A DNA stretch of 64,000 nucleotides, taken from IMG/VR virus record IMGVR_UViG_3300042350_003801, one strand, 5' to 3'. A program made the position numbers and the translations under genes. This document shows, piece by piece, positions 838-57,934 of the stretch. The notes under the pieces are model-generated. The model saw nothing but the letters and a program-made list of their open reading frames with translations. It had not been told where the DNA came from and ran no database searches. The DNA is from a virus. Its lineage: Duplodnaviria; Caudoviricetes. How positions within the stretch are numbered: the first letter of the stretch is position 1; every line of letters starts with the position of its first letter.

Positions 838-860
838 GTGCCACCTTAAAAACCGTCCAC
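838..860. promoter_or_regulatory. palindromic operator with divergent -10 boxes
   Basis: gtgccaccttaaaaaccgtccac; TATTCT (minus) and TATACT (plus, 890-895) each 29 nt from the palindrome edge. Confidence 0.75.
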
Positions 861-961
861 CGAGCCTGTCTTACTGGCTTGTGGTCTGCTATACTGATTA
901 CATCGGGCGCAAGAAGCGCAATAAACAAAAGGCCACAATAAACCTGCCCTTTAATACTGTA

Positions 962-998
962 CAAAGAATAAAGAAAGGGGGAGGATTGCTCCCTCCCC
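962..998 (-). terminator. Rho-independent terminator (near-identical copy at 4090-4131, variant at 2920-2955)
   Basis: ggggagg/cctcccc stem followed on minus strand by ctttctttattctttgt. Confidence 0.8.
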
Positions 999-1006
999 GG
1001 TTATAC

Positions 1007-1474
1007 TCAGTCTGCAATCATCGGACATTTAATACCTTCCCACGCCCTTGAATAGTTATCAATAACCTCGTCAATAAGAGATTCTAGCTTAGGGTGATAA
1101 GTGTAATTACAAACAATCTCTTCCGGTTCATTGCCGAGAACAATCCACAATCTAGCTCGCATTCCGTCTTTGTTAATGTAGACTGTGGCCGCATCCACTG
1201 AAACTATAATATCTGAAGCAGAATGGCGGATTTTTGTATTAGATTGCTCTTGGTCAATCTTGATAGTTTCCTCACCATCATTTACAGCAGTGATAGTGAA
1301 TCCTTCCTGTTGAAACTTGGCAAGAAGAGACCTAACGGGAACCGACCAATTAAAAGCCGTTTGGAAAGGTTTTAATTCGTGGCTAGCCATGATGCAATTC
1401 CTTGAAGACTCCTTAAGAATACCAGAATTGAGAGACAGGGATCTTAGTGTGTGCCAGTTCAACAACTGGCACAC
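1007..1474 (-). CDS. hypothetical protein (true start probably downstream of the promoter at ~1416-1459)
   Basis: ORF; its 5' end overlaps a palindrome promoter. Confidence 0.6.
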   Translation of the reverse strand: MCQLLNWHTLRSLSLNSGILKESSRNCIMASHELKPFQTAFNWSVPVRSLLAKFQQEGFTITAVNDGEETIKIDQEQSNTKIRHSASDIIVSVDAATVYINKDGMRARLWIVLGNEPEEIVCNYTYHPKLESLIDEVIDNYSRAWEGIKCPMIAD

Positions 1475-1476
1475 AC
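1447..1476. promoter_or_regulatory. perfect copy of the iterated palindrome (13-bp arms, 4-nt spacer)
   Basis: gtgtgtgccagtt-caac-aactggcacacac; minus-strand TATTCT 29 nt from the core. Confidence 0.85.
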
Positions 1477-1545
1477 AGCCTGCTTTTGGTGCTTACATAA
1501 ATAATACCAAAAAACCTTTAATAAGGATGTGATTTATTATTCCTA

Positions 1546-1773
1546 TCAATAATAAAGAGATGTAGTTTTTGTTATAGGTTTAGCCCTTAAAAGCGACTCA
1601 CCTTTAATCAGTCTCCAAGCCACATATTTGCGCTTCCTACATTCTTCCTCCGCCAGCTTCTCTTGATTGAAACGACTGTTTCTGCCGTCAAGTCTAATAA
1701 CTGAACGATCACCACATGCTGGTGCTAATTCTCCCGTTAGATTAACTTGGAAAAACTCTGCATAAGTGGCCAT
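1546..1773 (-). CDS. hypothetical protein (start revised to ATG 1773)
   Basis: Upstream in-frame extension is a leader shared with the 2029 gene (1771-1808 vs 2716-2753). Confidence 0.6.
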   Translation of the reverse strand: MATYAEFFQVNLTGELAPACGDRSVIRLDGRNSRFNQEKLAEEECRKRKYVAWRLIKGESLLRAKPITKTTSLYY

Positions 1774-2028
1774 TGGTCTGTGGAGCGGTTGACCTTCATA
1801 CAATAGCACCGGGAAGCCCGACCCGTAAAGCATCTGTCAGCGATTGCCCACACTTGAGCGGAAACTCTTTTTATCGTAGATTCTGGCGGAACCGATGGGC
1901 TATCCTACCCTTGCCACCAGAATACGAAAAAACCGAAAGTATAATAAACCGATGGCCATTCTTAATTACAATAAAAAGAGCCAGAGGGATTCTTATACCC
2001 CCCGGCCCGTTATACTATCGGTTGGGTA

Positions 2029-54837: not shown

Positions 54838-56014
54838 GAAACATAGAGCATACAAATATAGGTTCTATCCTACTCAAGACCAAGAAGTTATTCTTCGCAA
54901 GTCTATGGGGTGTGCTCGTTTTGTCTATAATTATTTTCTTGATTATAAAAGCAAAAAGTGGAAAGAAGAACAAAAGAGTGTTTCAGTATATGAAACATCT
55001 CGCATTCTCACACAACTCAAGAAAGAAACTGAATATGAATGGTTAAAGGAGCCGGTAGCGGCTGTGCTTCAAGGTTCTCTTATCAATCTAAATGATGCAT
55101 ATCAGAGGTTCTTTAAAGGTAAGGCAAACTATCCAAAGTTTAAGAAAAAGTCTAGAAGAAATAGTCTCTATTTTTCACCAAATGCCTTTTCGTATAAGAA
55201 CGGAAATATTAGTCTCTACAAATGTGGAGTAATTAATATTCGTTGGAGTAGAACTTTACCGGATGGAGTTTACCCAAAGAGTTGTGTAGTTTCACTTGAA
55301 CCTTCCGGTCGTTGGTGTATTTCTATTTTAATAGAAGACCCAACAATAGAAGAACTTGAACCGGTAGAAAAATCTATCGGTCTTGATATGGGCATTAATC
55401 ATTTTGTGGTTTCAAGTGATGGAAATAAAATTAAGTCTCCTGCTCTTAAAAAAGAGTACGCCAAATTAAAAAAACTACAAAGAAAATTAAGTAAAAAACA
55501 AAAAGGTTCTAATAACAGGCATAAAGCAAGATTAAAAGTTGCTAAACAATATCAAAAAATTACTGATATTAGAACCGATTTTCAACAAAAACTTTCAACT
55601 AAACTGGTGCGCGAGAACCAAACCATCTGTTTAGAAACTTTGAATATTGTTGGAATGGTAAAGAACCGCAAACTTTCAAGAGCAATTAGTGAAGCATCTT
55701 GGGGAACTTTTATTGATATGCTTGAGTATAAATGCGGTTGGTATGGTCGTAATCTTGTGAGGATTGACCGTTGGTATCCTTCAAGCAAAACTTGCAGTTC
55801 TTGCGGTTCAGTTCAGTCTAAAATGCCATTAAATATTCGTGAATGGACTTGCCCGAATTGTGGGGTTCATCACGATAGAGATATTAATGCAGCAAAGAAT
55901 ATTCTTGCGGTAGGAAATACCGTCTATGCCTGTGGAGGTAATGTAAGACCAAAGGAAGTGAGTTCCAGAGGCAATTCCGTTGAAGCAGGAAACTTAAACT
56001 GTGAGGTTAAGTAA
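54836..56014 (+). CDS. tnpB: TnpB RNA-guided endonuclease (IS200/IS605 OrfB), no TnpA nearby
   Basis: AYKYRFYPT, GLDMG, CLETL, CSSC..CPNC, HDRDINAA; RuvC D-E-D intact. Confidence 0.95.
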   Translation: MKHRAYKYRFYPTQDQEVILRKSMGCARFVYNYFLDYKSKKWKEEQKSVSVYETSRILTQLKKETEYEWLKEPVAAVLQGSLINLNDAYQRFFKGKANYPKFKKKSRRNSLYFSPNAFSYKNGNISLYKCGVINIRWSRTLPDGVYPKSCVVSLEPSGRWCISILIEDPTIEELEPVEKSIGLDMGINHFVVSSDGNKIKSPALKKEYAKLKKLQRKLSKKQKGSNNRHKARLKVAKQYQKITDIRTDFQQKLSTKLVRENQTICLETLNIVGMVKNRKLSRAISEASWGTFIDMLEYKCGWYGRNLVRIDRWYPSSKTCSSCGSVQSKMPLNIREWTCPNCGVHHDRDINAAKNILAVGNTVYACGGNVRPKEVSSRGNSVEAGNLNCEVK

Positions 56015-56066
56015 TTTTCAATTTTAGTTCAAAGGTCAGTTGTAGTATGGAAAGAATTTGAGATCT

Positions 56067-56522
56067 TCAATTAGAAGCTGTGTCAATAAACTCCAGATTT
56101 TTTCCTACCCATTCAGGGCTATACGAATAGACCTCGCCTTCAATGCCCAGGGCAATATAATTAGGATGCGAAACAACTCTTGTCCCCTCCAGCGTTTCTA
56201 GAGTAACAGTAGTATCCTCTGGAATAGGAATACACCTACAAAGTTCTTTCCTACAATAAATTCCAGAATCTTTTTCGGTTTCTTCCCAGGTTTTATGAAA
56301 AATGTCAATCTTACAGGGATATGGATCAGCACCATCAACTGGAATGACGACAAAATCAATTCCTTGCTCTGCTACTAGGTTTCCTTCGCCGTATTTGGAT
56401 TCAAATACCTCAGTTCCATTTACTTCACGAATCCTTACAAGAGTTTTCCGCCTTGCAACTTTAGGCTCACCAAAATGAGTGATTGCTTCTTGAGAGTTTG
56501 AGATAGTGATCGGGGTGCTCAT
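56067..56522 (-). CDS. PGDYG-like phage protein
   Basis: G.DFVVI...G..YPCK.DIF.KTWE; second TLEG..G..GEVY repeat. Confidence 0.55.
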   Translation of the reverse strand: MSTPITISNSQEAITHFGEPKVARRKTLVRIREVNGTEVFESKYGEGNLVAEQGIDFVVIPVDGADPYPCKIDIFHKTWEETEKDSGIYCRKELCRCIPIPEDTTVTLETLEGTRVVSHPNYIALGIEGEVYSYSPEWVGKNLEFIDTASN

Positions 56523-56601
56523 AGTATTGTTTTAAGGGCAATGGTATCATTGCATTTGTTTGTGGGTTTTTATTAGAGAATGTGCCAGTTTAAAAAGTGT
56601 C

Positions 56602-56823
56602 TCACCAATTAATTGTCATTTTCCAAAAAACATCATTATAATGCACGGTATAGCCGTCTTTCTCTAGTTCTTCTTTAATTTTTCTCCAAATTTTATGATG
56701 TCTAAATTTCTTTCCAAAATCAAGAGTCACAAAAGAATTACCACATTTTGGTTCAGTTGCATCTTTGATTTCCTTATAAATTTGGGTAAGTGCAAGTTCT
56801 AAAACCGCCTCATCGGTATTCAC
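56602..56823 (-). CDS. hypothetical protein
   Basis: ORF 73 aa. Confidence 0.55.
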   Translation of the reverse strand: MNTDEAVLELALTQIYKEIKDATEPKCGNSFVTLDFGKKFRHHKIWRKIKEELEKDGYTVHYNDVFWKMTINW

Positions 56824-57002
56824 TTTGCCTGTTCTTTCTCTTGCTTCTTTTGCGGTGATTCGTTCTCCTTATTTAATAGTATTAAATACCGGGGTGGTAT
56901 CACTTTTGACAAAGAGGAGCGTAGCAGACTATGAATGTCTTGTCAATAGGTAGGAATACTATGTTAGCGGATGCCAACAACGCCCACAAGCACTTGACAA
57001 AA

Positions 57003-57419
57003 TTAACCGAGTCTGCTACAGTAAAGGTCATAGAAAACTGCTTCTAGCCGATTGGCCCTAATTTCCCACGGCTGATTATCATAGTCATCGCTTTCATAAA
57101 AAACTCCGTTCCAATAGCGTTTACCGTTTTGTTCAGTAAGATTGCCTTTGATGTAGTCTTCAATATGAATCATCTCGTGAATGAGAGTCATTATATATTC
57201 TTTTCCGTTGAGATAATGGTGAATTTCAATAGTAAACTCTCTAGGGTCTTCAAGTTCACCCGAAACATACATTACGGCAGAATCTTCTGACAAGAATAAA
57301 TGTTCAATTGTTACATCGTATTCATATTCCTTAAGGAATGTTTTGTCAAACCAGGAGAGAACACTTCTACAAACAACATTTTGTTGGTAGGTTGCCCCAA
57401 TTATATCAGAAAAGAGCAT
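57003..57419 (-). CDS. putative zincin-like metallopeptidase
   Basis: TLIHEMIH (HExxH), QPWEIRA. Confidence 0.75.
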   Translation of the reverse strand: MLFSDIIGATYQQNVVCRSVLSWFDKTFLKEYEYDVTIEHLFLSEDSAVMYVSGELEDPREFTIEIHHYLNGKEYIMTLIHEMIHIEDYIKGNLTEQNGKRYWNGVFYESDDYDNQPWEIRANRLEAVFYDLYCSRLG

Positions 57420-57934
57420 AGCGAATGAAAACGTCTACGACTCTTGTTCCCCAGTTCATCATCCACAAAAATGAGACAATGAAAATGAGTTTTTCTTTGG
57501 TAGTCATTATCTTATTGTTAGGCTTTTTTATGCTAAGGGATTTTTGTGGAGTTTGGGGTTGTCTGTGGACAGATTTAAAAGTGGCGCAAAAAGAAAAAGA
57601 GCAGCTTGAGAGCCCACCAACTCTCTCACCACTCTCCCTCTTACGCTATAAGATAAAAGAAGAACGAGGCGAAATCTTCCGTTATCTTATAGCATTCCGG
57701 GGGTGCTCTTGGCGCCTCTCTCAGAACATTGTTAATTTAGCACGTTCACCTCCGTTTTGTTGCAGCGTGTGCCAGTTCGTCTAGCGTCCTAAAAGAAAAG
57801 GGGCCTGTTGAGCCCCTCGGTAAATGGTAAATCAGGGGTTATGAGCCCTATTGGGGAACAACTCCCAACTCATTAAGAATACAGCAAAACCATCAAAACA
57901 GTGAAAGCGTGTGCCAGTTTCACAACCGGCCCCA

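Follow-up and report, generated by a model that had tools for sequence, protein, structure and literature searches.

Introduction

The yfr2 promoters of Prochlorococcus and marine Synechococcus contain CGRE1, described as a palindrome of 21-22 nt in which 13-14 nt separate CAAC from GTTG and GTG..CAC forms the middle (Lambrecht et al. 2018, PMC6191309). The GntR-family protein PMM1637 was pulled down with CGRE1, shifted it in electrophoretic mobility shift assays (EMSA), an effect that was lost in the R50A mutant, and raised the expression of a yfr2 reporter; the yfr2 and yfr4 sites of strain MED4 are those with published PMM1637 data (PMC6191309). The homologues of PMM1637, called PlmA, are universal in and exclusive to the cyanobacteria, Yfr2 is induced by high light and late nitrogen starvation, and PlmA binds the PII-PipX complex (PMC6191309). 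In MED4, CGRE1 is found at no other place, and few direct targets of PlmA are known (Lambrecht et al. 2019, PMC6778093). Here we describe a 22-bp dyad, built of half-sites of the CGRE1 type, that recurs in promoter-like cassettes of a virus (Duplodnaviria; Caudoviricetes; IMG/VR virus record IMGVR_UViG_3300042350_003801). The whole stretch of 64,000 nucleotides that was analysed is referred to as the window, and it is the scope of the cassette counts below. We propose that a host regulator, probably PlmA, reads the dyad; our literature search found no published link between CGRE1 and phages.

T4-like cyanophages are among the most abundant viruses of oceans and lakes. To our knowledge, they lack the Alt and Mod proteins of T4, and no reader of their early promoters has so far been named. 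The 2016 study of Syn9 and P-TIM40 by Doron et al. reportedly found a novel regulatory element of early genes that is abundant in T4-like cyanophages. The cyanomyoviruses lack the MotA and AsiA genes (PMC2984593), and NtcA sites have been predicted in cyanophage genomes (PMC3037559). In the RB49- and phi1-type phages, the PeSL cassettes, which mediate the shuffling of ORFans, are sigma-70 promoters with a stem-loop terminator; both their -35 and -10 boxes are canonical, and the DNA upstream of them is AT-rich (Arbiol et al. 2010, PMC2839356).

Results

The dyad and its place in the promoter

The dyad was searched for as GTGNCNGTT-N4-AACNGNCAC with at most three mismatches, and the expectation was taken from 100 shuffles. 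This 22-bp pattern matched 37 times, as compared to 1.6 matches expected and a maximum of 5 in the 100 shuffles. The exact 9-mer AACTGGCAC occurs 34 times, against 0.47 expected from Markov simulations, with 28 of the copies on the minus strand, which also carries nearly all of the open reading frames (ORFs). A weight matrix with a threshold of at least 8 bits collected 52 imperfect 22-bp dyads; its consensus is GTGCCAGTT-N4-AACTGGCAC-A. A preliminary description of this DNA had counted at least about 40 copies of a palindromic operator; both scans bear out the number, and all 14 coordinates that it gave as examples were recovered, at most 2 nt off.

Read along the gene strand, the cassette consists of a loose half nTGnCAnTT, 4 nt, the strict half AACTGGCAC (usually followed by A), 29-31 nt and the hexamer TAnnnT. 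The half next to the -10 box is nearly invariant, with 1.5-2 bits per position. The operator is thus real as a dyad, but its conservation is asymmetric: the near half is strict, and the loose far half retains only the symmetric nTGnCAnTT. Variants of the far half occur without compensation in the near half, the stem is broken in most copies, and no T-run stands 3' of the dyad. Since the far-half variants are uncompensated, what is conserved is not an RNA or DNA hairpin of the dyad.

The distance to the -10 box is tightly fixed. Among 49 minus-strand half-sites with at most one mismatch, the offset from the dyad to TAnnnT peaked at 29, 30 and 31 nt (7, 9 and 14 sites, respectively), while every other offset was found at 0-4 sites. 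A leftward TAnnnT lies at 28-32 nt from 38 of the 52 dyads, as compared to a background chance of 10%. At the -35 position, TTG is present in none of 29 sites, versus 7.6% for all TAnnnT hexamers, and 10 of the 29 have the extended -10 element TGn. The distance of 28-31 nt and the missing -35 box, both claimed before, therefore hold in a full scan, with a sharp peak at 29-31 nt and non-random spacing. In 32 of 38 cassettes, an ATG that opens an ORF of at least 40 amino acids follows 20-35 nt after the -10 hexamer. The genes behind the cassettes are small accessory genes and small non-structural ORFs of a T4-like phage. When the start is assumed to lie 7 nt after the -10 box, the dyad covers about -64 to -43, with its centre near -53.5, and the leader to the ATG is 15-30 nt long.

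Judged by this geometry, the repeats are very probably promoters whose -35 box has given way to a dyad at a fixed distance. Such a dyad would be read most economically by a dimeric activator that binds DNA, and the earlier suggestion of promoters with a site for a dimeric activator agrees with the position of the dyad in place of a -35 box.

The dyad in cyanobacterial hosts

A collection with one genome per species (185,579 prokaryote species) was scanned for GTGMCASTT-N4-AACTGGCAC. Of the 74 loci that the scan yielded, 24 belong to cyanobacteria (Nostocales, Microcystis, Cyanobium, a Synechococcales genome, Chroococcidiopsis and others). As no more than a few percent of the collected species are cyanobacteria, their share of the loci is a large excess. 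Directly downstream of the dyad, an Rfam Cyano-1 (RF01701) RNA was found at 9 of the 19 cyanobacterial loci tested, and these RNAs start with the Yfr2 box GTGTGAGGAG. This box is presumably the complement of the Yfr1 motif ACUCCUCACAC, and we read the Cyano-1 RNAs at the host dyads as members of the Yfr2 family for this reason. Yfr1 and Yfr2 have conserved motifs that almost complement each other (Lambrecht et al. 2019, PMC6778093).

The host promoters of the yfr2 type read GTGCCAGTT-N4-AAnTGTCAC, 31 nt, TATTCT or TATCTT, and about 5 nt to the RNA, which is the geometry of the phage cassettes. Upstream of the Yfr2 box, a dyad of at least 10 bits was found in 18 of 49 regions, as compared to none of the 49 control windows placed 200 nt further upstream, and the best matches in the 49 regions begin 62-69 nt before the box. 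The arrangement and spacing of the phage dyad recur exactly at the yfr2 site of the Nostocales, of a Synechococcales genome and of some Microcystis. The yfr2 promoters of the Cyanobiaceae are built of the same 9-mers, AACTG(G/T)CAC and GTG(C/A)CAGTT. Those of the low-GC Cyanobiaceae have AACTGTCAC, 1 nt and GTGACAGTT, then 4 nt and a weak third half, and the published description of CGRE1 fits this arrangement. The far half-site (G)GACAGTT stands at a fixed position in about 15 of 30 Cyanobiaceae genomes. Because uninfected cyanobacteria have the dyad at an equal distance from the -10 box of Yfr2-type small RNA (sRNA) genes, a host factor must read it at those genes.

Several host dyads lie away from yfr2 and are followed 8 nt later by TTGACA and then by a -10 box (L158 and L170 of Microcystaceae, L159 of Trichormus, L146 and L168/L191 of Microcystis); at L158 and L159, a protein gene lies downstream. 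Judging from such sites, the host regulon of the dyad may be wider than Yfr2 in some cyanobacteria. The ORFs downstream of host dyads that do not adjoin yfr2 gave nothing informative.

Complete phage-type cassettes, with the dyad, 29-31 nt and TATTCT or TATAAT, were also seen on short contigs of non-cyanobacterial lake and marine metagenome-assembled genomes (MAGs), at loci L157, L184 (MAG 'LLD_282 Lanier'), L154, L160, L179, L195, L197 and L203. These contigs are probably mis-binned cyanophage DNA.

The cassette in other cyanophages

On its protein similarities, the window is an accessory, early-type region of a divergent T4-like cyanophage related to the Kyanoviridae. Its DEAD/ResIII helicase is 43% identical to the helicases of Synechococcus phages B23 and S-SRM01, and a 600-residue ORF is 43% identical to an ORF of the freshwater cyanomyovirus S-CRM01; these resemblances are the reason for reading it as a region of a T4-like cyanomyovirus. 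The tblastn searches thus placed the window among relatives in the Kyanoviridae, and no isolate phage matched 20 kb of it in megablast. The closest genome found, G036 (IMGVR_UViG_3300044846_005229), is 279 kb long and has terminal repeats.

The exact pattern AACTGGCAC-N29-31-TAnnnT occurs 16 times in B23, 8 times each in S-CRM01 and S-SRM01 and 4 times in the marine phage S-PM2, as compared to zero for reversed-pattern controls, and it is absent from S-CBWM1, which stands outside the Kyanoviridae. A scan of IMG/VR returned at least 120 contigs, themselves chosen by the dyad pattern; among the matches listed, a TAnnnT lies 30-32 nt downstream of 171 of the 276 exact half-sites. Among the matches listed for relatives, 27% of the cassettes carry, in addition, a TTG in the -35 position, 7-8 nt beyond the dyad, and the position of the dyad relative to the core promoter is therefore fixed. 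In Syn9, the matrix scan revealed about 6 sites of the promoter type, whose near half, A[A/G]GTGGCACA, is weaker and which have the same TATTCTATA context as in the window. The enrichment of k-mers upstream of TAnnnT in Syn9 was too weak for any motif, and nACTGGCAC, which is over-represented on the gene strand of Syn9 (60 versus 11), was rejected as a candidate, as it comes from Thr-Gly-Thr codons in structural genes and has no -10 spacing. By these motif counts, the dyad promoter class is widespread in T4-like cyanophages of marine and freshwater hosts, and is not private to the phage of the window.

The syntenic 60 kb of G036 contains 9 dyads, versus about 45 in the window, or about 40 within 58 kb. 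From this comparison of sequences, the window is a case of lineage-specific expansion of the cassette together with gene turnover.

The cassette is probably identical to the element of early genes described by Doron et al. 2016. The element is said to lie before small early-region genes, in promoters unlike those of host sigma-70, and to be conserved among T4-like cyanophages, all of which it has in common with the cassette, while the window differs in its copy density and in the total absence of a -35 box. The literature citing that study contained no description of the early-element motif that we could find, and a literature search with the 9-mer gave only unrelated primer matches. The window thus appears to be one more genome, unusually copy-rich, of a promoter class already reported.

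Two-sided dyads, spacer hairpins and gene turnover

Bidirectional promoters had been named as part of the system. They stand at 838 and 5086 only, where paralogous cassettes lie in a conserved module; overall, rightward -10 boxes are not enriched (7 of 52 dyads, which equals the background). The module lies on the plus strand, antisense to the genes, in five copies (225-410, 800-985, 2760-2945, 3945-4130 and 5048-5235), and is composed of a promoter, a short covarying hairpin (GCGC/GCGG-AAGAA-GCGC/CCGC) and a conserved GCCACAATAAACCTG tail. Since the cassettes at 838 and 5086 are paralogues of this conserved module, their bidirectionality is real. Three of the five copies have TTGACA-N17-TATTRT, and the two at 838 and 5086 have the dyad instead of the -35 region, with the -10 box at 30-32 nt. 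This natural swap between modules argues that the dyad and its spacer stand in for the -35 box and do its job.

When the spacers were folded, 13 of 43 reached -6 kcal/mol or lower, as compared to 12% of random 31-mers, and most cassettes have no hairpin. Eight strong GC-rich hairpins of -9 to -18 kcal/mol lie between the dyad and the -10 box, some of them abutting the hexamer. These look like terminators of upstream transcription built into the next promoter, and on account of them a subset of the cassettes would be a composite of terminator and promoter.

Beyond the dyad, the cassettes form loose subfamilies that are about 70% alike over 75 nt, as measured by pairwise identity, a crude metric. 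The window and G036 have collinear, scattered anchors with 60-80% amino-acid identity and different small ORFs between them, and are too distant from each other for breakpoints to be placed. A 254-residue ORF is present once in the window (16830-17594) and twice in G036 (160755-161540 and 176593-177332), with about 80% amino-acid identity.

Comparison with described promoter systems

As compared to CGRE1 (PMC6191309), the phage dyad is likewise a palindrome of 21-22 bp upstream of a -10 box, an activator-type site with the half-sites AACTGnCAC and GTGnCAGTT. In the Prochlorococcus/Synechococcus type, however, the half-sites are everted, 1 nt apart and accompanied by a weak third half, whereas the gap in the phage is 4 nt. 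The host sites number a handful and those of the phage dozens, to which PlmA binding is extrapolated.

The PeSL cassettes of RB49/phi1-type phages (PMC2839356) resemble those of the window in being repeated promoters that precede ORFans where a T4-type genome is plastic. The comparison, drawn already in the preliminary description, is apt only for the subset of window cassettes in which a GC-rich stem-loop separates the dyad from the -10 box. Most cassettes have no hairpin, their -35 box is missing, and the upstream element is a GC-containing dyad, a putative protein site without a stable hairpin.

The T4 middle promoter, which depends on MotA and AsiA, also combines a -10 box with a non-canonical upstream element that replaces the -35 box. 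The proposed likeness to MotA boxes goes no further: the sequences are unrelated, and the MotA box, one element without a palindrome, has its centre at -30 and depends on phage MotA and AsiA, whereas the window dyad is centred near -53 and ends 29-31 nt before the -10 box. NtcA-activated promoters similarly have the site of a host dimeric activator and a -10 box TAN3T without a -35 box. The NtcA site, GTA-N8-TAC, is 14 bp long, centred at -41.5 and about 22 nt from the -10 box, and a reading of the window promoters as NtcA-activated was rejected, as their conserved element is a dyad of 22 bp and another sequence, at 29-31 nt.

Candidate readers of the dyad

We consider that a host regulator, for which PlmA (PMM1637) is the candidate, may activate the early-type phage promoters through the dyad, and put the probability of this full statement at roughly 0.55. 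On the comparison of genomes, a host activator is more likely than a phage one, because the dyad precedes host yfr2 genes and no GntR domain was found in five phage genomes. In the proposed mechanism, a dimer of the host transcription factor would bind the dyad, with its centre near -53.5 just upstream of the place of sigma region 4, and would bring host RNA polymerase, with its primary sigma factor, to a promoter whose sole core element is a -10 box. The best candidate for this factor would be the cyanobacteria-specific, GntR-family PlmA, which is PMM1637 in Prochlorococcus MED4. The phage would have copied the promoter design of the host Yfr2 sRNA genes, about 40 promoters of small genes would fire at once after DNA entry without any phage-supplied factor, and early expression might be tied to the light and nitrogen state of the host. 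We infer all three of the binding of the phage arrangement by PlmA, activation as its effect and the early timing.

Several observations weigh against this proposal. Most GntR-family regulators are repressors. The half-sites of the MED4 site, AACTGTCAC, 1 nt and GTGACAGTT, are in the opposite order to the phage arrangement of GTGnCAGTT, 4 nt and AACTGnCAC, and this site starts at -55 to -57 (PMC6191309), as compared to near -64 for the phage dyad. Because of both differences, the binding of PlmA to the phage arrangement is an extrapolation. Furthermore, the strict half is the far one in host promoters and the near one in the phage. The count of 18 host dyads among 49 regions is partly circular, since 9 of these 18 strong dyads come from loci found through the motif itself, and 10 bits are reached in only about 5 of the 30 Cyanobiaceae genomes of an unbiased sample. 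Of 121 sampled cyanobacterial genomes, one, the seed genome, has the exact host-type pattern of 20 bases; host sites are degenerate, and exact matching over 20 bases is therefore too strict. Finally, the screen for DNA-binding domains covered only about 39 ORFs of the window.

The activator might instead be a dimeric protein of the phage that defines an early or middle regulon and either enters the cell together with the DNA or is first expressed from ordinary promoters, as the preliminary description had supposed. Phages often bring promoter-specificity factors, with MotA and AsiA of T4 as the established example, and the window, itself part of a genome, is dense in small ORFs without an assigned function, including the roughly 10 paralogues without a Pfam match. 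We nevertheless regard a phage-encoded factor as unlikely. The same dyad with the same spacing stands before the host yfr2 genes of several cyanobacterial orders, implying that a host reader exists, and the cassette has been retained in phages that infect marine hosts as well as in those of freshwater hosts. None of five complete cassette-bearing phage genomes, including that of G036, the closest complete relative, encodes a GntR domain, and the screen of 39 window ORFs recognised no DNA-binding Pfam domain.

More doubtful still is a direct reading of AACTGGCAC by the host RNA polymerase, through an alternative sigma factor or the alpha C-terminal domains and without any activator. The much better conservation of the near half is what a one-sided contact would produce, and its position at -51 to -43 overlaps the usual zone of UP elements. 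UP elements, however, are A/T-rich, the far half retains the symmetric nTGnCAnTT and is strict in host promoters, and a protein that binds the half-sites is known from pull-down and EMSA (PMC6191309).

We attach similarly little weight to a role of the dyad mainly as an operator or decoy, in which a host GntR protein would keep the promoters repressed pending a signal, or the phage copies would titrate PlmA and thereby switch off the Yfr2 response. The prevalence of repressors among GntR-family regulators is compatible with this role, as are the 40-50 sites per 64 kb, multiplied by the number of replicating genomes, and the few known direct PlmA targets, with CGRE1 found nowhere else in MED4 (PMC6778093). 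On the other hand, promoters without a -35 box need help to fire, the site is centred at -53 and does not overlap the core promoter, and PMM1637 raised the output of the yfr2 reporter (PMC6191309).

The idea that the palindrome is an RNA or DNA hairpin (a terminator, processing site or recombination hot spot) serving as a handle like the PeSLs, which join promoters to stem-loops and mediate gene shuffling in RB49-type phages (PMC2839356), with a secondary link to the -10 box, is very improbable: it would suit the gene content between conserved anchors, which differs from that of G036, and the cassette subfamilies, but the stem is broken in most copies with far-half variants uncompensated, no T-run follows the dyad, and the true terminator-like hairpins lie in the spacer and not in the dyad.

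Other features of the window

The coordinates of the cassettes and related features are listed in Table 1. A translation and RNA-repair gene cluster on the minus strand (45523-47016, 49689-50498, 19310-20086 and 37917-39404) includes a class II LysRS/AsnRS-type synthetase with an anticodon-binding OB fold, a second class II synthetase core (tRNA-synt_2b), the head domain of a polyA-polymerase/CCA-adding enzyme and an RNA-ligase-like protein. The minus strand also encodes, 1 kb apart, a ThiF-family (E1-like) protein and a second protein in which a prokaryotic JAB domain is weakly recognised (28433-29137 and 30208-31320); the two, from these domains, could be a pair for ubiquitin-like conjugation and deconjugation.

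Two TnpB (OrfB_IS605/Cas12f-like) genes lie on the plus strand, against the gene flow (33814-35010 and 54836-56014). The second of them has a T4-type late box TATAAATA upstream, back to back with a leftward dyad promoter.

About 10 paralogous minus-strand ORFs, nine of 118-156 residues and one of 203 residues, have a stretch of about 35 residues in common, which also matches G036 at 160309-160413; a Pfam scan of these ORFs gave no family. An Rfam scan of the window found no family at the gathering score, and thus no phage copy of Yfr2/Cyano-1 in the window.

Table 1. Positions of dyad cassettes and associated features in the window (spacer, nucleotides between the dyad and the -10 hexamer; ATG, position of the start codon)
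Feature	Position	Strand	Spacer (nt)	-10 hexamer	ATG	Spacer fold (kcal/mol)
Promoter cassette, dyad common with rightward promoter	803..859	-	29	TATTCT		
Rightward promoter on dyad of 803..859; drives antisense module with GCGC-AAGAA-GCGC hairpin	838..895	+	30	TATACT at 890-895		
Promoter cassette, perfect palindrome	1416..1472	-	29	TATTCT	1390	
Promoter cassette, strong hairpin in spacer	3515..3573	-	31	TATTAT		-18.3
Promoter cassette	4635..4692	-	30	TATTCT	4604	
Promoter cassette, dyad common with rightward promoter	5051..5107	-	29	TATTCT	5025	
Rightward promoter on dyad of 5051..5107; drives antisense module with GCGG-AAGAA-CCGC hairpin	5086..5145	+	32	TACTGT		
Promoter cassette	5513..5569	-	29	TATTCT	5488	
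Promoter cassette, far half degenerate	6000..6056	-	29	TATTCT	5973	
Promoter cassette	7985..8043	-	31	TAAACT	7957	
Promoter cassette	9215..9273	-	31	TAGAAT	9184	
Promoter cassette	9968..10026	-	31	TAGAAT	9947	
Promoter cassette	10460..10518	-	31	TATAAT	10435	
Promoter cassette	11678..11736	-	31	TAGACT	11648	
Promoter cassette, subfamily with 8022, 13618, 16820	12152..12210	-	31	TAAACT	12126	
Promoter cassette	13582..13639	-	30	TAAACT	13549	
Promoter cassette	14727..14784	-	30	TACCAT	14701	
Promoter cassette; dyad retained in place in relative G036	16783..16841	-	31	TAAACT		
Promoter cassette of 254-residue ORF	17643..17701	-	31	TAGCAT	17594	
Promoter cassette	18268..18325	-	30	TATGAT	18245	
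Promoter cassette of HNH gene	18913..18970	-	30	TACGCT	18890	
Promoter cassette	21317..21374	-	30	TAGAAT		
Promoter cassette	21956..22012	-	29	TATAGT	21932	
Weaker cassette	24778..24835	-	30	TATATT		
Weaker cassette	25758..25815	-	30	TACTCT		
Cassette of ThiF-like gene, both halves of AACCGTCCA variant type	29167..29223	-	29	TATGAT	29137	
Promoter cassette, GC hairpin abutting -10	30153..30211	-	31	TATACT	30122	
Cassette with strong half on far side, as in host promoters	33080..33137	-	30	TATAAT	33049	
Cassette adjoining tnpB element	33617..33674	-	30	TATGTT		
Promoter cassette of phosphoesterase gene	36276..36333	-	30	TATAGT	36253	
Promoter cassette, strong hairpin in spacer	40513..40570	-	30	TAGTCT		-17.5
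Promoter cassette	41907..41964	-	30	TATTCT	41882	
Cassette of pyrimidine-dimer glycosylase gene	44184..44240	-	29	TAGGTT	44162	
Weaker cassette, downstream of LysRS-like gene	45470..45526	-	29	TAGTAT		
Promoter cassette, paralogue of 52136	51720..51778	-	31	TATTGT	51689	
Promoter cassette	52099..52157	-	31	TATTGT	52075	
Weaker cassette	57530..57587	-	30	TAGCAT		
Promoter cassette	57734..57790	-	29	TAAATT		
Promoter cassette, paralogue of 838 and 5086	57876..57932	-	29	TATTCT		
Dyad without canonical TAnnnT at 28-32; terminator-like hairpin in spacer	15208..15229	-				
Strong dyad, -10 only near-consensus	41155..41176	-				
Strong dyad, -10 only near-consensus	49647..49668	-		TATAAC		
Strong dyad; TATAAATA box before tnpB on other side	54755..54776	-	30	CATAAT		
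Strong dyad without canonical -10	56582..56603	-				
Spacers with strong GC hairpin (fold energies in text)	3552, 40549, 15208, 30190, 24814, 29202, 10005, 11715					
Paralogous ORF family, common stretch of about 35 residues	7346-7957, 12787-13143, 14741-15154, 15394-15828, 26219-26689	-				
Paralogous ORF family, continued, common stretch of about 35 residues	27153-27596, 35092-35538, 43249-43662, 44608-45009, 48674-49120	-				

Discussion

A broader view of the phage group can be held only tentatively, at somewhat under even odds. T4-like cyanophages may have copied and multiplied the PlmA-dependent yfr2 promoter, such that the entire early programme would depend for its start on a host regulator wired to the PII-PipX nitrogen and energy network and to high-light stress. 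Infection would then be gated by the state of the host, and the phage sites might drain PlmA from the Yfr2 stress response.

The dyad precedes host Yfr2 genes and its half-sites are of the kind that PlmA binds, and the question of what reads the early promoters can therefore be put to a simple bench test; the link between PlmA and yfr2 is the part worth such a test. If the proposed activation by PlmA is true, the cassette would provide a portable, host-factor-dependent promoter for cyanobacterial engineering. Early phage transcription would be coupled to a regulator of light and carbon/nitrogen status, which would help to explain why cyanophage infection depends on host physiology.

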